A program made the translations under genes and the position numbers. Under the pieces are notes generated by a model. It searched no databases and was not told the origin of the DNA. It saw only the letters and a list, made by a program, of their open reading frames with translations. Shown here one piece after another: positions 4,532-45,219 of a stretch of 45,219 nucleotides of DNA. How positions within the stretch are numbered: position 1 is the stretch's first letter; each line of letters begins with the position of its first letter. The stretch is from a virus (lineage: Duplodnaviria > Heunggongvirae > Uroviricota > Caudoviricetes). The stretch lies in the IMG/VR virus record IMGVR_UViG_646206259_000004. One strand, given 5' to 3'.

Positions 4532-4589
4532 AAAAAGGGCGGCAGAGCAGTCACGGAGTAAAACTGATACCGCCAAACGTCACCAGAAA
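4532..4589 (-). ncRNA. dicF: DicF small RNA
   Basis: Reverse complement reads TTTCTGGTGACGTTTGGCGGTATCAGTTTTACTCCGTGACTGCTCTGCCGCCCTTTTT, recognised as DicF including its GC hairpin and U-run terminator; sits between the ydfC-like gene and dicB. Confidence 0.75.
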
Positions 4590-11320: not shown

Positions 11321-11474
11321 TTTTATATTGGCGAGGTGACGGGAGTTAAGTAGAATTGCTGCGGGTGCTTGAGGCTATCTGCCTCAGGCATGAACACCAA
11401 AGGCAGATAGAGAAAAGCCCCAGTTAATATTACGCGTCCTGCAAGACGCTTAACATTAATCTGAGGCTCAATCT

Positions 11475-11687
11475 ATGAACGGCAAATCTAGGTTAGCCTC
11501 TTACGTGCCGAAAGGCAAGGAGAAGCAGGCTATGAAGCAGCAAAAGGCGATGTTAATCGCCCTGATCGTCATCTGTTTAACCGTCATAGTGACGGCACTG
11601 GTAACGAGGAAAGACCTCTGCGAGGTACGAATCCGAACCGGCCAGACGGAGGTCGCTGTCTTCACAGTTTACGAACCTGAGGAGTAA
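11475..11687 (+). CDS. mok: Mok-like reading frame (N-terminally extended Hok frame)
   Basis: 70 aa ORF containing Hok in frame, as in mokC/hokC loci. Confidence 0.55.
   Translation: MNGKSRLASYVPKGKEKQAMKQQKAMLIALIVICLTVIVTALVTRKDLCEVRIRTGQTEVAVFTVYEPEE
11532..11687 (+). CDS. hok: Hok/Gef family type I toxin
   Basis: 51 aa MKQQKAMLIALIVICLTVIVTALVTRKDLCEVRIRTGQTEVAVFTVYEPEE, a near-match to the Hok/Gef/RelF family; mRNA-like context with upstream inverted repeats and a downstream fold-back/terminator. Confidence 0.85.
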   Translation: MKQQKAMLIALIVICLTVIVTALVTRKDLCEVRIRTGQTEVAVFTVYEPEE

Positions 11688-16057: not shown

Positions 16058-16133
16058 GGCCCTTTAGCTCAGTGGTGAGAGCGAGCGACTCATAATCGCC
16101 AGGTCGCTGGTTCAAATCCAGCAAGGGCCACCA
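16058..16133 (+). tRNA. ileZ: tRNA with CAU anticodon (Ile2/lysidine type or Met; ileZ-like)
   Basis: Hand-folded cloverleaf: acceptor GGCCCTT/AAGGGCC, D-arm GCTC/GAGC, anticodon loop CTCATAA, T-loop TTCAAAT, 3' CCA encoded. Confidence 0.75.
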
Positions 16134-16140
16134 TCACATA

Positions 16141-16217
16141 CCGCCATTAGCTCATCAGGAAAGAGCGCCAGCCTTCGAAGCTGGTTGCGCGGAGTTCGGG
16201 TCCCCGAAGGCGGTCCA
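16141..16217 (+). tRNA. argN: tRNA-Arg (UCG anticodon; argN-like), atypical stems
   Basis: Cloverleaf folds with anticodon loop CTTCGAA and T-loop TTCGGGT, but with one mismatch each in the acceptor and T stems; needs tRNAscan confirmation. Confidence 0.5.
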
Positions 16218-16230
16218 TTATCTGTATCCT

Positions 16231-16307
16231 GCGTTGTTAGCTCAGCCGGACAGAGCAATTGCCTTCTAAGCAATCGGTCACTGGTTCGAATCCAGTACAA
16301 CGCGCCA
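16231..16307 (+). tRNA. argO: tRNA-Arg (UCU anticodon; argO-like)
   Basis: Acceptor GCGTTGT/ACAACGC, anticodon loop CTTCTAA, T-loop TTCGAAT, 3' CCA encoded. Confidence 0.75.
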
Positions 16308-16352: not shown

Positions 16353-16566
16353 CTCACAATTCAGGCGGTTGACTGTTGTCTGGTTTGCGGGGAGTTTGTT
16401 AAAAGAAACTGGCATGGTGAATCCCCCTGTGCGGAGGGGCAATCAGCGAGTAGGTATATGGGATAATCGCGGATTCAGGTGCTGGTACTGAATTCACCGG
16501 GAGGCACCCGGCACCATGCAATGGCACATAGCGCCACTCTCCAGCCCCTCTCCGGAGGGGCTTTTC
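16353..16566 (+). repeat. Structured non-coding module, copy 1 (candidate sRNA with own promoter-like motifs and intrinsic terminator)
   Basis: CTCACAATTCAG..GTTGAC...GGTGAATCCCCCTGTGCGGAGGGGC...(T)ATAAT...CACCGGGAGGCACCCGGCACCATG...CCCCTCTCCGGAGGGG+T-run; shares these blocks with copy 2. Confidence 0.4.
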
Positions 16567-16820
16567 TGTGCCGGATACATCACAGTTTCTGGAACCTTAG
16601 GTACTACAGTATCAGTCAGGGTGCTATATTTTCAGATGTGATGAAAGCCTGTCAGCAGGCAGGGCGTATCGGAAATGACCCAGTAGAGAAAACGTTGACT
16701 CAGATACCGGTGCTGAGTTACCGGGAAACCGGCATCACATGACCGCTATCCTTCCAGGCCCATCCGCTCCGGTGGGCCTTTTTACTGCAGAAAACAGGTT
16801 CCCCGTTAAATGCTATGTTG

Positions 16821-17055
16821 CTCACAATTCAGTAAGTTGACAGTTGCCTGTCAGACTGGGCATTTGTTAAAAAAATTTCGCATGGTGAATCCCCCTGAGC
16901 GGAGGGGCGACTGGTGACGGTATAATCTCTGATTATCAAAACGAGAATGACGCGGGTTTAGTGGCACCGGGCTGAACTCACCGGGAGGCACCCGGCACCA
17001 TGTGCATGATGATACAGATACGCGGCTTTAGCCCCTCTCCGGAGGGGTTTTCTTG
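16821..17055 (+). repeat. Structured non-coding module, copy 2
   Basis: Same conserved blocks as copy 1 in the same order, ending in the CCCCTCTCCGGAGGGG hairpin plus T-run; 468 bp downstream of copy 1. Confidence 0.4.
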
Positions 17056-17282
17056 TGGGCAAAAAAAGCCCGCGCTGGGAGACGCGGGCGGCAAGGAATA
17101 AACAATAAAACGTGAAGTAATATTTCAGCTGGCGAATAATACCCCATAGTAATCACTCTGCGCAACTGCGCGGTCTTTTTCGAATTGCGGGCTGTCGTCT
17201 CTCTTCTGCCATTGTCCTGTAACTTCCGGACTTCAGCCCGCTCCTTATTTTACTCACAATATTATCCCGGCCGGGAGGATTC

Positions 17283-21576: not shown

Positions 21577-23117
21577 NNNNNNNNNNNNNNNNNNNNNNNN
21601 NNNNNNNNNNNNNNNNNNNNNNNNNNNNNNNNNNNNNNNNNNNNNNNNNNNNNNNNNNNNNNNNNNNNNNNNNNNNNNNNNNNNNNNNNNNNNNNNNNNN
21701 NNNNNNNNNNNNNNNNNNNNNNNNNNNNNNNNNNNNNNNNNNNNNNNNNNNNNNNNNNNNNNNNNNNNNNNNNNNNNNNNNNNNNNNNNNNNNNNNNNNN
21801 NNNNNNNNNNNNNNNNNNNNNNNNNNNNNNNNNNNNNNNNNNNNNNNNNNNNNNNNNNNNNNNNNNNNNNNNNNNNNNNNNNNNNNNNNNNNNNNNNNNN
21901 NNNNNNNNNNNNNNNNNNNNNNNNNNNNNNNNNNNNNNNNNNNNNNNNNNNNNNNNNNNNNNNNNNNNNNNNNNNNNNNNNNNNNNNNNNNNNNNNNNNN
22001 NNNNNNNNNNNNNNNNNNNNNNNNNNNNNNNNNNNNNNNNNNNNNNNNNNNNNNNNNNNNNNNNNNNNNNNNNNNNNNNNNNNNNNNNNNNNNNNNNNNN
22101 NNNNNNNNNNNNNNNNNNNNNNNNNNNNNNNNNNNNNNNNNNNNNNNNNNNNNNNNNNNNNNNNNNNNNNNNNNNNNNNNNNNNNNNNNNNNNNNNNNNN
22201 NNNNNNNNNNNNNNNNNNNNNNNNNNNNNNNNNNNNNNNNNNNNNNNNNNNNNNNNNNNNNNNNNNNNNNNNNNNNNNNNNNNNNNNNNNNNNNNNNNNN
22301 NNNNNNNNNNNNNNNNNNNNNNNNNNNNNNNNNNNNNNNNNNNNNNNNNNNNNNNNNNNNNNNNNNNNNNNNNNNNNNNNNNNNNNNNNNNNNNNNNNNN
22401 NNNNNNNNNNNNNNNNNNNNNNNNNNNNNNNNNNNNNNNNNNNNNNNNNNNNNNNNNNNNNNNNNNNNNNNNNNNNNNNNNNNNNNNNNNNNNNNNNNNN
22501 NNNNNNNNNNNNNNNNNNNNNNNNNNNNNNNNNNNNNNNNNNNNNNNNNNNNNNNNNNNNNNNNNNNNNNNNNNNNNNNNNNNNNNNNNNNNNNNNNNNN
22601 NNNNNNNNNNNNNNNNNNNNNNNNNNNNNNNNNNNNNNNNNNNNNNNNNNNNNNNNNNNNNNNNNNNNNNNNNNNNNNNNNNNNNNNNNNNNNNNNNNNN
22701 NNNNNNNNNNNNNNNNNNNNNNNNNNNNNNNNNNNNNNNNNNNNNNNNNNNNNNNNNNNNNNNNNNNNNNNNNNNNNNNNNNNNNNNNNNNNNNNNNNNN
22801 NNNNNNNNNNNNNNNNNNNNNNNNNNNNNNNNNNNNNNNNNNNNNNNNNNNNNNNNNNNNNNNNNNNNNNNNNNNNNNNNNNNNNNNNNNNNNNNNNNNN
22901 NNNNNNNNNNNNNNNNNNNNNNNNNNNNNNNNNNNNNNNNNNNNNNNNNNNNNNNNNNNNNNNNNNNNNNNNNNNNNNNNNNNNNNNNNNNNNNNNNNNN
23001 NNNNNNNNNNNNNNNNNNNNNNNNNNNNNNNNNNNNNNNNNNNNNNNNNNNNNNNNNNNNNNNNNNNNNNNNNNNNNNNNNNNNNNNNNNNNNNNNNNNN
23101 NNNNNNNNNNNNNNNNA

Positions 23118-23213
23118 GCTTCTCTGGATGAGCTTAACCGGGCGATCAATGATGCGGAGTCGGTACTGGGGACAACCCGCCGTCGCCGTCGTCCGCTGGG
23201 AGTGAGGTTATGA
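23118..23213 (+). CDS. W: Head-tail joining protein W, C-terminal fragment visible after the mask
   Basis: ...ASLDELNRAINDAESVLGTTRRRRRPLGVRL with stop overlapping the portal ATG (ATGA), as in lambda W/B. Confidence 0.5.
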   Translation, partial: ASLDELNRAINDAESVLGTTRRRRRPLGVRL

Positions 23214-24766
23214 AACGAACGCCTGTCCTGATTGATGTGAACGGCGTTCCGCTTCGGGAGAGCCTCAGCTACACCGGTGGCGGTGCAGGATTTGGCGGGC
23301 AAATGGCAGAGTGGTTGCCACCCTCGCAGAGTGCCGATGCGGCCCTGCTGCCCGCGTTGCGTCTGGGGAATGCCCGTGCAGATGATCTGGTGCGCAATAA
23401 CGGAATAGCGGCCAATGCGGTGGCCCTGCATAAGGATCACATTGTCGGGCATATGTTTCTGATTAGCTACCGTCCGAACTGGCGCTGGCTGGGGATGCGG
23501 GAGACCGCGGCAAAAAGTTTTGTCGATGAGGTGGAGGCGGCCTGGTCAGAATACGCAGAAGGGATGTTTGGTGAGATCGACGTGGAAGGGAAACGCACGT
23601 TTACGGAATTTATCCGTGAAGGTGTGGGCGTTCATGCGTTTAACGGCGAAATCTTTGTGCAGCCGGTCTGGGATACGGAGAGTACGCAACTGTTTCGTAC
23701 GCGTTTTAAAGCCGTGAGTCCGAAACGGGTGGACACGCCAGGACACGGTATCGGGAACCGTTTTCTGCGGGCCGGTGTGGAGGTTGATCGATATGGCCGT
23801 GCCGTTGCGTACCATATCTGTGAGGATGATTTTCCTCGCTCCGGGAGTGGACGATGGGAACGGATCCCGCGTGAACTACCCACCGGGCGTCCGGCCATGC
23901 TGCATATTTTCGAGCCGGTGGAGGACGGGCAGACCCGTGGAGCCAATCAGTTTTACAGCGTTATGGAACGGCTGAAGATGCTCGATTCCCTGCAGGCAAC
24001 ACAGCTTCAGTCGGCCATAGTGAAGGCGATGTATGCAGCGACGATTGAAAGTGACCTTGATACCGAAAAGGCCTTTGAATATATCGCCGGTGCGCCGCAG
24101 GGGCAGAAGGATAATCCGCTTATTAATATTCTGGATAAGTTCTCCACCTGGTATGACACGAATAGCGTGACGCTGGGCGGTGTCAAAATTCCGCACCTTT
24201 TCCCCGGTGATGATCTGAAACTTCAGACCGCGCAGGATTCAGACAATGGATTTTCGGCGCTTGAACAGGCGCTGCTGCGGTATATCGCCGCCGGTCTTGG
24301 CGTTTCCTACGAACAGTTGTCCCGTGATTACTCGAAGGTCAGTTACTCAAGTGCCCGCGCATCCGCCAATGAGTCGTGGCGCTATTTTATGGGGCGGCGA
24401 AAATTTATTGCGTCCCGGCTGGCCACGCAGATGTTTTCCTGCTGGCTGGAAGAGGCACTTCTTCGGGGGATTATTCGTCCGCCACGGGCACGGTTTGATT
24501 TTTATCAGGCGCGATCAGCCTGGTCACGGGCTGAGTGGATTGGAGCCGGAAGAATGGCCATTGACGGGCTCAAGGAGGTTCAGGAATCAGTGATGCGCAT
24601 TGAGGCCGGACTGAGCACGTATGAGAAAGAGCTGGCGCTGATGGGCGAGGATTATCAGGACATTTTCCGCCAGCAGGTCAGGGAATCTGCAGAGCGGGAA
24701 AAAGCCGGACTCTCACGTCCGGTGTGGATAGCGCAGGCGTATCAGCAGCAGATAGCGGAGAGTCGC
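23210..24766 (+). CDS. B: Portal protein B (3' end N-masked)
   Basis: MKRTPVLIDVNGVPLRESLSYTGGGAGFGGQMAEWLPP... closely resembles lambda gpB; runs into the mask at 24767. Confidence 0.9.
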
Positions 24767-35881: not shown

Positions 35882-38800
35882 ATGGGTAAAGGAAGCAGTA
35901 AGGGGCATACCCCGCGCGAAGCGAGGGACAACCTGAAGTCCACGCAGCTGCTGAGTGTGATCGATGCCATCAGCGAAGGGCCGGTTGAAGGTCCGGTGGA
36001 CGGATTAAAAAGCGTGCTGCTGAACAGTACGCCGGTGCTGGACAGTGAGGGGAATACCAATATATCCGGTGTCACGGTGGTGTTCCGGGCAGGTGAGCAG
36101 GAGCAGACACCGCCGGAGGGATTTGAATCCTCCGGCTCCGAGACGGTGCTGGGTACGGAAGTGAAATATGACACGCCGATCACCCGGACCATCACGTCGG
36201 CAAACATCGACCGTCTGCGCTTTACCTTCGGTGTGCAGGCACTGGTGGAAACCACCTCAAAGGGGGACAGGAATCCGTCGGAAGTCCGCCTGCTGGTTCA
36301 GATCCAGCGTAACGGTGGCTGGGTGACGGAAAAAGACATCACCATTAAGGGCAAAACCACCTCGCAGTATCTGGCCTCGGTGGTGGTGGATAACCTGCCG
36401 CCGCGCCCGTTTAATATCCGGATGCGCAGAATGACGCCGGACAGCACCACAGACCAGCNNNNNNNNNNNNNNNNNNNNNNNNNNNNNNNNNNNNNNNNNN
36501 NNNNNNNNNNNNNNNNNNNNNNNNNNNNNNNNNNNNNNNNNNNNNNNNNNNNNNNNNNNNNNNNNNNNNNNNNNNNNNNNNNNNNNNNNNNNNNNNNNNN
36601 NNNNNNNNNNNNNNNNNNNNNNNNNNNNNNNNNNNNNNNNNNNNNNNNNNNNNNNNNNNNNNNNNNNNNNNNNNNNNNNNNNNNNNNNNNNNNNNNNNNN
36701 NNNNNNNNNNNNNNNNNNNNNNNNNNNNNNNNNNNNNNNNNNNNNNNNNNNNNNNNNNNNNNNNNNNNNNNNNNNNNNNNNNNNNNNNNNNNNNNNNNNN
36801 NNNNNNNNNNNNNNNNNNNNNNNNNNNNNNNNNNNNNNNNNNNNNNNNNNNNNNNNNNNNNNNNNNNNNNNNNNNNNNNNNNNNNNNNNNNNNNNNNNNN
36901 NNNNNNNNNNNNNNNNNNNNNNNNNNNNNNNNNNNNNNNNNNNNNNNNNNNNNNNNNNNNNNNNNNNNNNNNNNNNNNNNNNNNNNNNNNNNNNNNNNNN
37001 NNNNNNNNNNNNNNNNNNNNNNNNNNNNNNNNNNNNNNNNNNNNNNNNNNNNNNNNNNNNNNNNNNNNNNNNNNNNNNNNNNNNNNNNNNNNNNNNNNNN
37101 NNNNNNNNNNNNNNNNNNNNNNNNNNNNNNNNNNNNNNNNNNNNNNNNNNNNNNNNNNNNNNNNNNNNNNNNNNNNNNNNNNNNNNNNNNNNNNNNNNNN
37201 NNNNNNNNNNNNNNNNNNNNNNNNNNNNNNNNNNNNNNNNNNNNNNNNNNNNNNNNNNNNNNNNNNNNNNNNNNNNNNNNNNNNNNNNNNNNNNNNNNNN
37301 NNNNNNNNNNNNNNNNNNNNNNNNNNNNNNNNNNNNNNNNNNNNNNNNNNNNNNNNNNNNNNNNNNNNNNNNNNNNNNNNNNNNNNNNNNNNNNNNNNNN
37401 NNNNNNNNNNNNNNNNNNNNNNNNNNNNNNNNNNNNNNNNNNNNNNNNNNNNNNNNNNNNNNNNNNNNNNNNNNNNNNNNNNNNNNNNNNNNNNNNNNNN
37501 NNNNNNNNNNNNNNNNNNNNNNNNNNNNNNNNNNNNNNNNNNNNNNNNNNNNNNNNNNNNNNNNNNNNNNNNNNNNNNNNNNNNNNNNNNNNNNNNNNNN
37601 NNNNNNNNNNNNNNNNNNNNNNNNNNNNNNNNNNNNNNNNNNNNNNNNNNNNNNNNNNNNNNNNNNNNNNNNNNNNNNNNNNNNNNNNNNNNNNNNNNNN
37701 NNNNNNNNNNNNNNNNNNNNNNNNNNNNNNNNNNNNNNNNNNNNNNNNNNNNNNNNNNNNNNNNNNNNNNNNNNNNNNNNNNNNNNNNNNNNNNNNNNNN
37801 NNNNNNNNNNNNNNNNNNNNNNNNNNNNNNNNNNNNNNNNNNNNNNNNNNNNNNNNNNNNNNNNNNNNNNNNNNNNNNNNNNNNNNNNNNNNNNNNNNNN
37901 NNNNNNNNNNNNNNNNNNNNNNNNNNNNNNNNNNNNNNNNNNNNNNNNNNNNNNNNNNNNNNNNNNNNNNNNNNNNNNNNNNNNNNNNNNNNNNNNGTCG
38001 GTATCGTTCCGGATTGCCGCACCGGCAGCACCGTCGAGGATTGAGCTGACGCCGGGCTATTTTCAGATAACCGCCACGCCGCATCTTGCTGTTTATGACC
38101 CGACGGTACAGTTTGAGTTCTGGTTCTCGGAAAAGCGGATTACCGATATCAGGCAGGTTGAAACCACAGCCCGCTATCTTGGTACGGCGCTGTACTGGAT
38201 AGCCGCCAGTATCAATATCAAACCGGGCCATGATTATTATTTTTACGTTCGCAGTGTGAACACCGTTGGCAAATCGGCATTCGTGGAGGCTGTCGGTCGG
38301 GCGAGCGATGATGCGGAAGGTTACCTGGATTTTTTCAAAGGAGAAATCGGGAAAACACATCTGGCCCAGGAGTTGTGGACGCAGATTGATAACGGTCAGC
38401 TTGCGCCGGACCTGGCTGAAATCAGGACGTCCATTACGAATGTCAGCAATGAAATCACGCAGACCGTCAATAAAAAACTGGAAGACCAGAGTGCGGCAAT
38501 CCAGCAGATACAGAAAGTTCAGGTTGATACAAATAATAACCTGAACAGCATGTGGGCCGTGAAACTGCAGCAGATGAAGGACGGACGCCTTTATATTGCG
38601 GGTATCGGAGCCGGTATTGAGAATACGCCAGCAGGTATGCAGAGTCAGGTGCTTCTGGCTGCTGACCGGATTGCGATGATTAATCCTGCGAATGGCAACA
38701 CAAAGCCGATGTTTGTTGGTCAGGGCGATCAGATATTCATGAACGACGTGTTCCTGAAACGCCTGACGGCTCCGACCATTACCAGCGGCGGTAATCCTCC

Positions 38801-39429: not shown

Positions 39430-40029
39430 ATGCGTAAAGTTTGTGCAGTCATTTTGTCCGCAGCCATCTGTCTGTCCGTATCCGGTGCGCCTGCATGGGC
39501 GTCTGAACATCAGTCCACACTGAGCGCGGGGTATCTTCATGCCCGTACGAACGCTCCCGGCAGCGATAATCTGAACGGGATTAACGTGAAATACCGTTAT
39601 GAGTTTACGGACGCGCTGGGGCTGATTACGTCCTTCAGTTATGCCAATGCTGAGGATGAGCAAAAAACGCACTACAGCGATACCCGCTGGCATGAAGATT
39701 CCGTGCGTAACCGCTGGTTCAGCGTGATGGCGGGGCCGTCTGTACGCGTGAATGAATGGTTCAGCGCGTATTCGATGGCGGGTGTGGCTTACAGCCGTGT
39801 GTCGACTTTCTCCGGGGATTATCTCCGCGTAACTGACAACAAGGGGAAAACGCACGATGTGCTGACCGGAAGTGATGACGGTCGCCACAGCAACACGTCT
39901 CTGGCGTGGGGGGCTGGCGTGCAGTTTAACCCGACCGAATCCGTGACCATTGACCTTGCTTATGAAGGTTCCGGTAGTGGCGACTGGCGAACGGATGCAT
40001 TTATTGTTGGTATCGGATACCGTTTCTGA
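39430..40029 (+). CDS. lom: Lom outer-membrane protein (Ail/Lom family)
   Basis: 199 aa with signal peptide; GINVKYRYE.TD, SVMAGP, AYEGSGSGDWRTD.FIVG.GY.F motifs as in lambda Lom. Confidence 0.9.
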   Translation: MRKVCAVILSAAICLSVSGAPAWASEHQSTLSAGYLHARTNAPGSDNLNGINVKYRYEFTDALGLITSFSYANAEDEQKTHYSDTRWHEDSVRNRWFSVMAGPSVRVNEWFSAYSMAGVAYSRVSTFSGDYLRVTDNKGKTHDVLTGSDDGRHSNTSLAWGAGVQFNPTESVTIDLAYEGSGSGDWRTDAFIVGIGYRF

Positions 40030-40180: not shown

Positions 40181-43100
40181 ATGACAGTAAAAATTTCTGG
40201 CGTGCTTAAAGATGGCACAGGAAAACCAGTACAGAACTGCACCATTGTGCTGAAGGCCAGACGAACCAGCAGCACGGTGGTGGTGAACACGGTGGCCTCT
40301 GAAAATCCGGATGAAGCCGGACGTTACAGCATGGATGTTGAGCATGGTCAGTACAGCGTCACCCTGCTGGTTGAAGGTTTTCCGCCTTCACATGCCGGGA
40401 CCATTACCGTCTATGAAGGTTCCAGACCAGGTACGCTGAATGATTTTCTCGGTGCCATGACGGAGGATGATGTCCGACCGGAGGCACTGCGCCGCTTTGA
40501 GCAGATGGTGGAAGAGGTGTCACGTAACGCCTCCGCGGTTGCACAGAATACGGCAGCCGCGAAAAAATCAGCCAGCGATGCCAGTGCATCAGCCAGCGAG
40601 GCGGCAACTCATGCAACCGATGCTGCAGCCTCAGCACGTGCCGCCAGCACGTGCCGCCAGCACGTCAGCCGGACAGGCCGCGTCGTCGGCTCAGTCAGCG
40701 TCTTCCAGCGCAGGAACGGCATCGACAAAGGCCCGTGAAGCAGCAAAAAGTGCTGCTGCTGCAGAGTCATCAAAAAGCGCGGCAGCTACCAGCGCCAGTG
40801 CCGCGAAAACGTCAGAAACGAATGCCGCAGCGTCACAACAATCAGCAGCCACTTCTGCATCCACCGCGACCACGAAAGCGTCAGAAGCAGCCACTTCAGC
40901 ACGGGATGCGTCGGCTTCAAAAGAGGCGGCAAAATCATCAGAAACGAACGCAGCCTCGAGCGCCAGCAGCGCAGCTTCCTCGGCAACGGCGGCAGCAAAT
41001 TCTGCGAAGGCGGCAAAAACGTCCGAGACGAACGCCAGGTCTTCTGAAACGGCAGCGGGACAGAGCGCCTCAGCTGCGGCAGACTCAAAAACAGCGGCTG
41101 CATTATCTGCCAGTGCCGCGTCAACAAGTGCCGGGCAGGCCTCAGCCAGTGCCACCGCCGCCGGAAAATCGGCAGAAAGTGCTGCATCGTCTGCTTCAAC
41201 AGCCACAACGAAGGCTGGCGAAGCCGCTGTACAGGCCAGCGCAGCAGCGAGGTCTGCTTCCGCAGCGAAGACATCCAAGACGAACGCGAAAGCGTCGGAA
41301 ACCAGCGCAGAATCCTCAAAAACGGCTGCCGCATCGTCCGCCAGTTCGGCGGCGTCATCGGCATCATCTGCGTCTGCTTCAAAAGATGAGGCGACCAGAC
41401 AGGCGTCAGCAGCAAAGGGCAGCGCCACGACGGCATCCACGAAGGCGACAGAGGCAGCTGGCAGTGCGACGGCGGCAGCTCAGAGCAAAAGTACGGCGGA
41501 ATCCGCGGCAACGCGCGCTGAGACAGCGGCAAAACGGGCAGAGGATATTGCATCCGCCGTGGCGCTTGAGGATGCGAGCACGACGAAAAAGGGGATAGTA
41601 CAGCTCAGCAGTGCGACTAACAGCACTTCCGAGTCACTGGCGGCAACGCCAAAAGCCGTTAAGGCCGCGTATGAGCTGGCTAACGGGAAATACACCGCAC
41701 AGGATGCAACGACAGCACAGAAAGGGATAGTTCAGCTTAGCAACGCGACCAACAGCACATCTGAAATGCTGGCGGCAACGCCAAAGTCGGTAAAGGCAGC
41801 CTATGACCTTGCTAACGGGAAATATACTGCTCAGGACGCTACGACAGCACAAAAAGGAATTGTCCAGCTCAGTAGTGCAACCAACAGCACATCTGAAATG
41901 CTGGCGGCAACGCCAAAGTCGGTAAAGGCAGCCTATGACCTTGCTAACGGGAAATATACTGCTCAGGACGCTACGACAGCACAAAAAGGAATTGTCCAGC
42001 TCAGTAGTGCAACCAACAGCGCATCTGAAACGCTTGCCGCGACACCGAAAGCAGTGAAAGCAGCTAATAATAATGCGAATGGTCGGGTACCTTCTGCCCG
42101 TAAGGTGAATGGTAAGGCGCTTTCAGCGGATATAACACTGACGCCGAAAGATATTGGTACGCTTAACTCAACAACAATGTCATTCAGCGGTGGTGCTGGT
42201 TGGTTCAAATTAGCAACGGTAACCATGCCACAGGCGAGTTCTGTTGTTTCAATTACGTTGATTGGTGGTGCGGGATTTAACGTGGGGTCACCTCAACAGG
42301 CAGGTATATCTGAACTTGTTTTGCGTGCAGGTAATGGTAATCCGAAGGGGATTACTGGTGCTTTATGGCAGCGCACATCGACAGGGTTTACAAATTTTGC
42401 CTGGGTCAATACATCTGGTGATACTTACGATATTTACGTTGCAATCGGAAATTATGCGACTGGTGTAAATATTCAATGGGATTATACCAGTAATGCCAGC
42501 GTGACGATTCATACGTCACCAGCATATTCTGCTAATAAGCCGGAAGGGTTAACGGACGGTACAGTTTATTCACTCTATACGCCATCAGAGCAGTTTTATC
42601 CGCCTGGCGCACCAATCCCGTGGCCATCAGATACCGTTCCGTCTGGCTATGCCCTGATGCAGGGGCAGACTTTTGACAAATCTGCATACCCGAAACTTGC
42701 AGCCGCTTATCCGTCAGGCGTGATCCCTGATATGCGTGGCTGGACGATTAAGGGCAAACCCGCCAGTGGTCGTGCCGTATTGTCTCAGGAACAGGACGGC
42801 ATTAAATCGCACACCCACAGCGCCAGCGCATCCAGTACGGATTTGGGGACGAAAAACACATCGTCGTTTGATTACGGAACCAAATCCACGAATAACACCG
42901 GGGCGCATACGCACAGTCTGAGTGGCTCTACGGGGTCTGCCGGTGATCATACTCATGGTAATGGTATTCGTTGGCCAGGAGGCGGCGGTTCTGCGTTAGC
43001 ATTTTATGATGGCGGTGGGTTCACTTATGTCCAGGATTCACAGTATCAAGTAAGCCCGGGGACTTCTTCCCGTAGATCGTATTATCAACGTATTCAGACA

Positions 43101-43301
43101 CAGTCAGCAGGTGCTCATACCCACTCGCTGTCTGGTACTGCAGCAAGTTCTGGCGCACATGCACATACTGTAGGTATTGGTGCGCATACGCACTCCGTTG
43201 CGATTGGTTCACATGGACACACCATCACCGTTAACGCTGCTGGTAACGCGGAAAACACCGTCAAAAACATCGCATTTAACTATATTGTGAGGCTTGCATA
43301 A
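40181..43301 (+). pseudogene. stf: Side tail fibre stf, split by a +1 frameshift caused by a 13-bp tandem duplication (40633-40658)
   Basis: N-terminus MTVKISGVLKDGTGKPVQNCTI.LKARR... and C-terminus ...[31 protein letters not shown] match lambda Stf; track ORFs 40181..40738 and 40467..43301 are in different frames; CAGCACGTGCCGC occurs twice in tandem and removing one copy restores a single frame. Confidence 0.8.
41577..42065 (+). repeat. In-frame 132-bp (44 aa) tandem repeats within stf, about 3.7 copies
   Basis: Repeated unit [44 protein letters not shown]; copies 2 and 3 nearly identical at the DNA level. Confidence 0.85.
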
Positions 43302-43885
43302 TGGCATTCAGAATGAGTGAACAAGCACGGACCATAAAAATTTATAATCTGCTGGCCGGAACTAATGAATTTATTGGTGAAGGTGACGCATATATTCCGC
43401 CTCATACAGGTCTGCCAGCAAACAGTACCGATATTGCACCACCAGATATTCCTGCTGGCTTTGTGGCTGTTTTCAACAGTGATGAGGCATCGTGGCATCT
43501 CGTTGAAGACCATCGGGGTAAAACGGTTTATGACGTAGCGTCAGGGGACGAGTTATTTATTTCTGAACTCGGTCCGTTACCGGAAAATGTTACCTGGTTA
43601 TCGCCGGAAGGGGAGTTTCAGAAGTGGAACGGCACAGCCTGGGTGAAGGATACGGAAGCAGAAAAAATGTTCCGGATCCGGGAGGCGGAAGAAACAAAAA
43701 ACAACCTGATGCAGGTAGCCAGTGAGCATATTGCGCCGCTTCAGGATGCTGCAGATCTGGAAATTGCAACGGAGGAAGAAACCTCATTGCTGGAAGCCTG
43801 GAAAAAGTATCGGGTGTTGCTGAACCGTGTTGATACATCAACTGCACCTGATATTGAGTGGCCTACGAACCCTGTCAGGGAGTAA
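43301..43885 (+). CDS. tfa: Tail fibre assembly protein Tfa
   Basis: 194 aa, near-identical in pattern to lambda Tfa ([82 protein letters not shown]...). Confidence 0.95.
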
Positions 43886-43939
43886 TCATTGGGATTATGC
43901 CGCAGCACGTCTTAAGCAAGAACGTGCTGCGGTTGGATG

Positions 43940-44608
43940 CTATTTTTTCCCTGAAGCGGAAAACATTACTACAGTACCTTGAACCTTGGTTTTAACATTC
44001 TCGAAATGCTCTGAGAGTATATGTGTTAAGCCTTCTTCGGAATCTTTTGTGTTTGAAAAGATGCCTTTCTGATTGTAAATGCGCATCAGTTTTTGACCGA
44101 AGCTATTGTGCACAACTCCATCGCCAAGAATTGTGGCTCCGTATAGAGTTCCATCGTCAGTTAAGGCCTGCGCCGCATTGCGTATTACACAGCTTTTTGT
44201 AGATATATTTCCAGGCAGGCAGTGAAGAAGGTAAAACATGGAAATGGAATCAAATTGACCATGTAACGCCGCGGGATAAGGTTCAAAAACATCATGGCTA
44301 ATTTTATGTTTAATTTTTGATTCCCCAGCCCTTGTAGATGCCGCGTTCAGGCTAGCTTCGTTCAAATCCATTAAAGATATCAGACTACTCTCAGGTACGT
44401 GAGTAAGGTAAAACCCAGTTCCAACACCAATATCCAGATGGTTGTTACCTACATGTTCCAGAAAGTGTGGAAGAAGGTGTTCCTTTGTAGGACATCCCCA
44501 TGCAAGCCGATTTGATACTCCCAAAACCCACCAGTCATAAAGCTTTAGGGTAAGTGGTGTGTAAATTTTAGCCCCATCATCTGTGTTTTTTTTCATTGAT
44601 TTCACCAT
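43940..44608 (-). CDS. Class I SAM-dependent methyltransferase-like moron protein
   Basis: 222 aa, AT-rich, opposite strand; motif I-like LDIGVGTGFY, acidic post-I (LISLMDL) and motif II-like FDSISMFYLLH. Confidence 0.55.
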   Translation of the reverse strand: MVKSMKKNTDDGAKIYTPLTLKLYDWWVLGVSNRLAWGCPTKEHLLPHFLEHVGNNHLDIGVGTGFYLTHVPESSLISLMDLNEASLNAASTRAGESKIKHKISHDVFEPYPAALHGQFDSISMFYLLHCLPGNISTKSCVIRNAAQALTDDGTLYGATILGDGVVHNSFGQKLMRIYNQKGIFSNTKDSEEGLTHILSEHFENVKTKVQGTVVMFSASGKK

Positions 44609-44664
44609 GTTATAGTTTTATTTGTGAATTAAATCAATTATGGCGATGAATTACAAGGGGTTAA

Positions 44665-44934
44665 ATGCTGCCGCAGCATAGCGATATTGAAATAGCCTGG
44701 TATGCTTCGATACAGCAGGAGCCGAATGGCTGGAAGACCGTCACCACACAGTTCTACATCCAGGAATTCAGTGAGTATATTGCGCCACTGCAGGATGCTG
44801 TAGATCTGGAAATCGCAACGGAGGAAGAAAGATCGTTGCTGGAGGCATGGAATAAATATCGGGTATTGTTGAATCGTGTTGATACATCAACTGCACCTGA
44901 TATTGAGTGGCCTGCAAATCCTGTCAGGGAGTAA
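44665..44934 (+). CDS. Second Tfa-like ORF / tfa C-terminal duplicate with a different N-terminus
   Basis: 89 aa; C-terminal 55 aa (...[52 protein letters not shown]) near-identical to the Tfa C-terminus; N-terminal 35 aa unrelated. Confidence 0.6.
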
Positions 44935-45219
44935 TCATTGGGATTATGCCGCAGACACGTCGTATGCAGGAACGTGCTGCGGTTAGTTTGTGAGCTTTCG
45001 ATAGTGGTTGTTATTTTTGCCCTTATTTGTTCCGGAGGCCATGGTTCAATGGTCCGTCTGCCCCCTGTGGTGATGTCAGCAAAATCAGCCACTGCGCGAA
45101 CCACAATAGCCCGGGAAGATGCTGAAGATCACCAGGTAAAGCTATCAGCGCAGAAACTGGAAGAACTGCTCGCATCAATGGTTAAGGATGAGGTTGATCG
45201 CAATGATGGGATTTATTGA

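Follow-up and report, generated by a model that had tools for sequence, protein, structure and literature searches.

A ybcY methyltransferase gene between two tfa 3′ ends: a probable lambdoid-prophage cargo cassette

Why should the 3′ end of a tail fibre assembly gene occur twice, about a kilobase apart, with a methyltransferase-like gene lodged between the two copies on the opposite strand? The question arises at the right end of a 45,219-nt stretch of caudoviral DNA, IMG/VR record IMGVR_UViG_646206259_000004, which we call the window and which is a UTI89-type lambdoid prophage. A first-pass annotation, made from the letters alone, had read the arrangement as cargo captured by recombination between alternative cassettes of the tail fibre assembly gene tfa. 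The part of this reading that survives is a duplication derived from recombination; the alternative cassettes do not. The best explanation for the locus as a whole, and one we hold with good confidence, is a widespread lambdoid-prophage cargo (‘moron’) cassette, the tfaD-ybcY-tfaX locus of the Escherichia coli K-12 prophage DLP12. The locus is already annotated and very common in E. coli, and it is not new.

From tfa to the window end, the DNA (1.9 kb) is 100% identical to UTI89, APEC O1, S88, NU14, and many further genomes, and at least 80% of this stretch was found in 1,126 of 5,426 complete E. coli genomes. The ybcY segment (43940–44664) is present in 3,836 of the same genomes (~71%), at one to four places per genome, and its copies are at least 98% identical at every full-length place among the matches listed. 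The gene also resides in isolated, plaque-forming temperate phages (PhiR26_1, whose annotation names the methyltransferase ‘YbcY’, PhiR29/30, 2G7b, and ev243), and the cassette structure recurs in 39 IMG/VR viral contigs; phages lambda, HK629, and HK630 are without ybcY. The UTI89 annotation reads, in order, a tail fiber assembly protein, a class I S-adenosylmethionine (SAM)-dependent methyltransferase on the minus strand, a tail fiber assembly pseudogene, a DUF4376 pseudogene, and a 3′ fragment of ompW, beyond which the host genes yciE/yciF/trp adjoin. Comparison with UTI89 puts the prophage end ~300 bp past the window end. The right end of the window holds, in order, lom, stf, tfa, a minus-strand open reading frame (ORF), a short plus-strand ORF, and a fragment that runs to the window end, with the following features:

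39430–40029: lom
40181–43301: stf
43301–43885, plus strand: tfa, the full-length tail fibre assembly gene, 194 aa (Pfam Caudo_TAP, E 1.3e-44; ‘tail fiber assembly protein’ in UTI89)
43709–43934: repeat copy 1, the last ~58 codons of tfa, the stop codon, and the downstream hairpin
43899–43932: hairpin 1 (GCCGCAGCACGT...ACGTGCTGCGG), in the gap between tfa and ybcY, whose 3′ ends converge
43940–44608, minus strand: predicted ybcY-type class I SAM-dependent methyltransferase gene; the listed ORF has 222 aa
44609–44637, minus strand: predicted sigma-70 promoter of ybcY, TTGATT-17-TATAAC, an exact and single match in the window (0 expected)
44665–44757, plus strand: 5′ fragment (~31–33 codons) of an unrelated small phage gene, ‘X’ (phrog_3893), the apparent N-terminus of the chimeric ORF
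44665–44934, plus strand: the apparently chimeric second ORF, 89 aa
44758–44984: repeat copy 2, the 3′ end of what appears to be a different tfa allele (codons ~132–194) with its hairpin, fused in frame to the fragment of X
44948–44982: hairpin 2, identical at 35 of 35 positions to the second hairpin of lambda, beyond ea47
45031–45219, plus strand: remnant (pseudogene fragment) of a tail-fibre/DUF4376-type gene, towards the prophage end

The first step towards an answer concerns the repeat. A search of the window for repeats returned two direct blocks separated by a 1-nt indel (43709–43905 versus 44758–44954, 197 nt, 89% identity; 43906–43934 versus 44956–44984, 29 nt, 90%). BLASTN aligned copy 1 to copy 2 over 227 columns at 88.5% (43709–43934 and 44758–44984) or, with a stricter start, over 216 columns at 89.8% (43720–43934 and 44769–44984). 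In the alignment, similarity begins near CAGTGAG (43720/44769) and stops at GCGGTT, just beyond the hairpin. An identity of 88.5–90% is far beyond chance, and the repeat of the tfa 3′ end described in the first-pass annotation, hairpin included, is real; the spans given there, 43724–43913 and 44773–44962, lie inside the repeat but end ~20 nt short on its 3′ side, where the hairpin is fully included.

The nature of the divergence between the copies is informative about their origin. In the shared coding part they differ by 12.5 synonymous versus 5.5–9.5 non-synonymous changes, with a synonymous rate (dS) of 0.41–0.44, a non-synonymous rate (dN) of 0.046–0.074, and a ratio (omega) of 0.10–0.18. 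This mostly synonymous divergence suggests that both copies diverged as working tfa alleles in different phages and were joined later by recombination. The same pattern excludes that the repeat is an artefact of assembly or was recently duplicated in tandem and in place, either of which would fit two copies standing just 1,049 bp apart and sharing a terminal hairpin. The copies are too different for such an event (~11% divergence, dS 0.44, omega ~0.1), and the structure is unchanged in many independent complete genomes, in K-12, and in the 39 viral contigs. We give an artefact or tandem duplication practically no credence, and the assembly duplication that the first-pass annotation had named as its possible undoing did not materialize. 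A transposon or insertion sequence (IS) that delivered cargo and duplicated its target site was also considered and rejected: no transposase ORF was found, the repeats are ~220 nt long and ~11% diverged, and the sole inverted repeat reported in 41000–45219 does not flank the insert. As a side observation, the Rfam family IS009 (RF02111) matches both tfa 3′ copies, at 43644–43842 (223.8 bits) and at 44688–44891 (112.5 bits; gathering score 117). Papers that mention IS009 only list it, and one leaves it out for its position within same-strand genes; the family coincides with conserved tfa coding sequence and is probably no independent small RNA (sRNA).

The second step concerns what copy 2 is attached to. 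The 89-aa ORF matches Caudo_TAP over model positions 75–130 of 131 (residues 31–86; Pfam) and so lacks the full-length domain of a tail fibre assembly protein, which agrees with the unrelated N-terminus noted in the first pass; the Prokaryotic Genome Annotation Pipeline (PGAP) entry for this ORF in UTI89 reads ‘tail fiber assembly protein, incomplete, missing N-terminus’. Outside the cassette, phage Ayreon has a relative of its first 38 residues at 75% identity, and five Klebsiella phages have one at 51%. In Klebsiella phage Kp4882-3, these N-terminal residues start a free-standing 79-aa ORF without a Tfa part (BLASTP, 53% over 36 residues, E 4e-12). In the PHROGs database, residues 3–37 match phrog_3893, the family of this 79-aa ORF (E 3.3e-7), and residues 29–87 align with several families of tail-fibre-assembly proteins, at their C-terminal ends. 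The homology between the small gene of Ayreon and the window stops at ~44751, and tfa homology begins at 44758; the fusion joint would therefore lie at roughly 44752–44770. The second ‘Tfa’ ORF thus appears, from these matches, to be a chimera of ~33 codons of a phrog_3893 gene and the final ~58 codons of another tfa allele. In relatives, the ORF decays in several ways, through truncation to 61 aa in K-12, a frameshift in 2G7b, and a different tail in PhiR26_1. We conclude that the 89-aa ORF is a fusion remnant and no alternative chaperone. In Kp4882-3 (locus L011, 3504–4071), the 79-aa phrog_3893 gene also overlaps, by ~65 nt, the start of a 130-aa ORF without a Pfam match.

This anatomy bears directly on whether the locus is a host-range switch of the Mu gin, P1 cin, or e14 pin type, with a methyltransferase captured between alternative tfa cassettes. 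Two tfa 3′ ends do stand close together, and some ybcY contigs have a second tfa-like gene (42–45% identity) on the opposite strand, ~2–5 kb off, so that invertible fibre segments may exist in some relatives. The two copies in the window are direct, and none is inverted. What copy 2 offers is a Tfa piece without its N-terminal ~130 residues, joined to an unrelated gene. It comes with no alternative stf C-terminus, and in relatives the second ORF is broken, by truncation in K-12 and by a frameshift in 2G7b. The pin-like invertase whose search beyond the window end had been proposed is absent from the UTI89 annotation between the window end and host yciE, the prophage ending at the ompW fragment. 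Switching is, on balance, a highly improbable explanation. The contigs with a second tfa-like gene (L036, L038, L074, L077, L082, and L112) have a left tfa piece reduced to a short remnant and may carry a different, perhaps invertible, fibre module.

How, then, could a cassette with one full tfa and one chimeric tfa end have arisen and spread? On our preferred reading of a mosaic cargo cassette, a single illegitimate joint between the small gene beside ybcY and the tfa of another phage would have created the right-hand copy, and ybcY itself may have been recruited into a prophage from a chromosomal enterobacterial family. The right tfa piece begins at residue 132 in 41 of 45 ybcY loci, as would be expected if one fusion had founded them all. 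The left tfa piece falls into at least four classes, which span residues 1–194 (22 loci), 147–194 (2), 156–194 (9), and 163–194 (6), and homology to relatives breaks inside the repeat, on the right at 44889 (PhiR26_1 and 2G7b) and 44911 (K-12), and on the left at 43765 (2G7b). These breakpoints and classes suggest that the tfa 3′ segment is a recurrent crossover site, at which different left and right arms have repeatedly been joined to the cassette. Since each flank shares homology with the conserved tfa 3′ end, ordinary phage–phage recombination could attach any tfa-bearing left arm or any right arm, and recombination at the same flanks could also delete the cassette. Ayreon has kept both flanks and lost ~660 bp of ybcY by internal deletion. 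This loss and the pseudogene annotation of ybcY in K-12 together argue that the gene is dispensable for phage growth.

The third step is to ask what the cargo encodes. The first-pass annotation had placed an AT-rich class I SAM-dependent methyltransferase-like gene between the repeats on the minus strand, and this description is borne out. The ORF at 43940–44608 matches Pfam Methyltransf_12/23/25/11, all above cut-offs, and its G+C content is 0.39–0.43, against 0.48–0.63 in stf and tfa. Three lines of evidence support a class I SAM-dependent methyltransferase fold for the 222-aa protein. First, motif I (LDIGVGTG, residues 58–65) is present, with D59, G61, G63, and G65 invariant in 42 homologs; D81 (in LMDLN), the acidic residue for the ribose hydroxyls, is invariant at the end of a predicted strand (76–81), and HD106 and FDSxSMFYLLHCLPG are further invariant SAM motifs of the alignment. 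Second, the structural model (predicted local distance difference test, pLDDT, 90.5) contains a seven-stranded β-sheet with a C-terminal antiparallel hairpin and flanking helices, the architecture of class I. Third, a fold search against PDB and viral libraries returned bacterial phosphatidylethanolamine (PE) N-methyltransferase PmtA (8ys9, E 1.6e-12) as the top Foldseek match, with PmtA, JHAMT, BelI, DhpI, Coq5, and similar enzymes as structural neighbours. PmtA 8ys9, insect JHAMT 7ec0, BelI 9fce, DhpI 3ou2, and UbiG 4kdr are each only 12–21% identical to YbcY, and for its family-specific invariant blocks (YDWWVL, LLHCLPG, and YNxKGIFSN) no match was made in these enzymes.

Function is harder to read than fold. 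In the NCBIfam scan none of the families reached threshold, CpaM, RquA, and PmtA scoring just 16–18 bits against cut-offs of 175–390; the PADLOC scan gave nothing significant (only mads_2, E 0.009, 12.9 bits), and the PHROG matched, phrog_2132, is labelled ‘unknown function’. YbcY homologs are plentiful (2,296 clusters at E <= 1e-3; 1,326 representatives at 50% clustering), with a typical length of 218 aa. At 56–68% identity they are stand-alone chromosomal genes of Enterobacter, Salmonella, and Citrobacter in unrelated neighbourhoods, some near other prophage-type cargo (DinI, SodC, SopA, and PerC), and one deep homolog is fused to a P450. Across these genomic contexts no conserved partner gene was found, and hence no operon-based function. 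In the literature search, ybcY turned up in gene lists, a promoter/H-NS table, and an ompT-context note and in no functional study, and tfaX/tfaD yielded only unrelated acronyms.

An obvious proposal for a methyltransferase on a phage is that it modifies DNA, as an anti-restriction or epigenetic enzyme akin to the orphan methylases of other phages. The SAM-dependent fold on a phage-borne gene would suit this role, and the same slot holds restriction-type and defence genes in other phages. Examined as an N6A, N4C, or C5 DNA methyltransferase, YbcY does not show the signature of that class, a DNA-methylase family match with a (D/N/S)PP(Y/F) or PCQ motif and a target-recognition domain. We consider a DNA methyltransferase very unlikely. 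Our best guess for the substrate is a small molecule or a lipid, RNA being still admissible and DNA unlikely. The first-pass preference for a small-molecule or RNA enzyme over a DNA enzyme is upheld in that the structural neighbours act on small molecules or lipids and YbcY is probably no DNA methylase. YbcY is thus best pictured as a self-sufficient small-molecule or lipid methyltransferase that would be expressed from the prophage.

Such expression would rely on the promoter predicted just upstream. In K-12, the same hexamers of the ybcY/tfaX spacer are reported as a constitutive RpoD promoter, with H-NS binding (PMC3946193), and the low G+C content of ybcY fits that H-NS binding. In the window the -10 hexamer abuts ATG 44608, so this codon is probably untranscribed. 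The true start is probably ATG 44596, which gives a protein of 218 aa and, with transcription predicted to begin at about 44603–44600, a very short leader. This is the typical length of the homologs, among which Met5 is invariant, and residue 5 is also where the PHROG match begins.

The fourth step is to ask why the cargo sits where it does. By the hairpin pattern we recovered 120 IMG/VR loci and recorded what each holds in the interval after tfa:

52 of 120 loci: tfa and one hairpin, with none of ybcY, ea47, or X found
45 of 120 loci: the ybcY cassette
10 of 120 loci: ea47
1 of 120 loci: X and tfa only
12 of 120 loci: none of the four query proteins found

Twenty-three loci without ybcY or ea47 have a near-full-length tfa followed by the hairpin; the 12 of these with at least 300 nt downstream were clustered, and their occupants are Avs2, a McrB-like AAA_5 gene with another ORF behind it, a membrane-like protein of 385 aa, or host DNA. 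Avs2 (PADLOC, E 3e-202) and the McrB-like gene come from the IMG/VR contigs L087 and L062. Cargo and defence genes thus gather in the interval behind tfa, a hotspot for both, and ybcY would occupy a hairpin-bounded slot right behind tfa that elsewhere holds ea47 or defence genes, as the survey in part bears out. For YbcY itself, the defence genes found in the same slot elsewhere are a lead, no evidence.

The right arm of the hairpins that bound this slot (AACGTGCTGCGG) occurs three times in the window at no more than one mismatch, against 0.25 expected, and the hairpin 1 variant was seen 40 times in the scanned hairpin-bearing loci. Hairpin 1 folds at -29.3 kcal/mol (z -3.4) on the plus strand and at -25.4 kcal/mol (z -3.9) on the minus strand, and hairpin 2 at -24.2 kcal/mol (z -1.9). 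Hairpin 2 is terminator-like on the plus strand in the terminator scan. Hairpin 1 sits 7 nt past the ybcY stop, has no T-run on the minus strand, and drew no minus-strand terminator call. The hairpin element is also found in HK97, mEp460, and 2H10.

The occupancy of the slot raises the possibility that YbcY is an active benefit to the lysogen, through anti-phage defence or a change of envelope or lipid such as PE N-methylation, and no neutral hitch-hiker. It shares its hairpin-bounded position with Avs2 and McrB-like genes; it is intact in thousands of genomes, with invariant catalytic motifs and its own predicted promoter; the best structural match is a PE N-methyltransferase, with a weak NCBIfam PmtA match besides; and its N-terminal helix is aromatic-rich (YDWWVL). 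Against this, the location is no more than guilt by association, none of the structural neighbours stands out in the ranking, and the NCBIfam PmtA match reaches 15.7 bits where the cut-off is 390. In K-12, H-NS binds the region (PMC3946193), and ybcY is lost or broken in K-12 and Ayreon at no obvious cost. We therefore regard a selected benefit as doubtful, if worth keeping in view. A bolder version would make YbcY a single-gene lysogenic-conversion or defence factor that methylates, for example, the head group of a phospholipid or a metabolite with a toxic or signalling role and so alters the envelope or metabolism of the lysogen. The slot would then be a dedicated, recombination-ready hotspot whose occupants, ea47, Avs2, McrB-like genes, and ybcY, are all host-protective; we put this forward as speculation that is unlikely to hold.

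Returning to the mosaic cargo cassette, several observations weigh against it or loosen parts of it. No clean copy 1/copy 2 junction of the kind left by a popped-out cassette was seen, and the E. coli listing bridged the ybcY insertion, which makes the states with and without it indistinguishable there. The ybcY identity of at least 98% across E. coli could reflect recent spread and not selection for function. The stem of the hairpin pairs in 99.2% of cells, but covariation amounts to a single compensatory pair (C-G to A-U) and is weak, as the search pattern fixed most stem positions. The T-tracts are weak, with none on the ybcY strand, and a terminator or insulator role of the hairpins is plausible at the level of consensus.

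E. coli K-12 has had this locus annotated ever since its genome was sequenced, and the finding, a re-discovery, changes no picture. Its value, a modest one, lies elsewhere. With a presence in about 71% of complete genomes and up to four copies in each, ybcY is among the most prevalent cargo genes of E. coli prophages; the anatomy of the cassette illustrates cleanly how mosaicism among lambdoid phages assembles portable units; and the slot after tfa is a defined place in which to look for new cargo and defence genes.

Further observations concern the neighbours of the cassette and the rest of the window. The fragment at 45031–45219, annotated in UTI89 as ‘DUF4376 domain-containing protein, internal stop, missing N-terminus’, matches phrog_7703 (E 7.8e-15) and phrog_1141 ‘tail fiber protein’ (E 2.2e-10) and has ~71% DNA identity to stf2/tail4 of phages SerU-LTIIb and Rac-SA53; it is another remnant of a tail-fibre module at the prophage end. 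The stf gene lies in two overlapping frames (ORFs 40181–40738 and 40467–43301), where UTI89 has a single 1,035-aa coding sequence; the frame shift stems from a 13-bp tandem duplication (CAGCACGTGCCGC) at about 40632–40644, relative to UTI89. Laboratory lambda has an stf frameshift that this split resembles. Within the tail tip gene, which is gpJ-like, ~1.5 kb at about 36459–37996 have no UTI89 megablast match between flanks that are 99.8–100% identical, which suggests that the central segment of the host-specificity protein J has been swapped. Rfam matches further include three tandem tRNA genes followed by two copies of the STnc100 sRNA (161 and 136 bits; 16058–16304, 16383–16573, and 16851–17060), the sok antitoxin RNA (113 bits; 11363–11537, plus strand), which implies a hok/sok-type toxin–antitoxin locus, and the DicF sRNA (76.7 bits; 4537–4588, minus strand) in the early region of the prophage.

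The final step is to set the cassette beside the systems it most resembles. Phage lambda has the same plan as the window: tfa (orf-194), a hairpin, ea47 on the minus strand (22686–23918), and a second hairpin. Both second hairpins are GC-rich, ~35 nt long, and identical at all 35 positions, and window 44948–45006 is 89.8% identical to lambda 24161–24219. In the lambda sequence (L019, NC_001416), the aligned hairpin copies at about 22575–22610 and 24175–24209 bracket ea47. Lambda differs from the window in its cargo, a 410-aa ea47 product without a Pfam or PADLOC match in place of a methyltransferase, and in having no tfa coding sequence before the second hairpin, so that the hairpin alone is duplicated.

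The DLP12 prophage of K-12 matches the layout of the window. Its genes tfaD, ybcY (b0562, minus strand), and tfaX (b0563) stand in the same order and orientation, with 96.9% DNA identity over window 43447–44911, and DLP12 shares both the divergent promoter spacer and the chimeric N-terminus of TfaX with the window. The K-12 annotation lists ybcY as a pseudogene, and TfaX stops there at 61 aa, whereas the window has an intact ybcY and a second tfa copy that retains its full 3′ end and hairpin. The downstream contexts differ as well, with appY-ompT in K-12 and the ompW-side prophage end in the window.

Lambdoid morons provide the broader comparison. Like them, ybcY is an extra gene present in only some of a set of similar phages at the same position (45 loci with it, 52 without, and 10 with ea47), and it has its own predicted promoter, a flanking hairpin, a G+C content below that of its neighbours, and transcription that would be independent of the late operon. 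A classic moron is said to lie in the same orientation as its surroundings, between two essential genes. The ybcY cassette departs from this pattern in being antisense, in sitting at the end of the late operon, and in carrying long homology arms derived from tfa.

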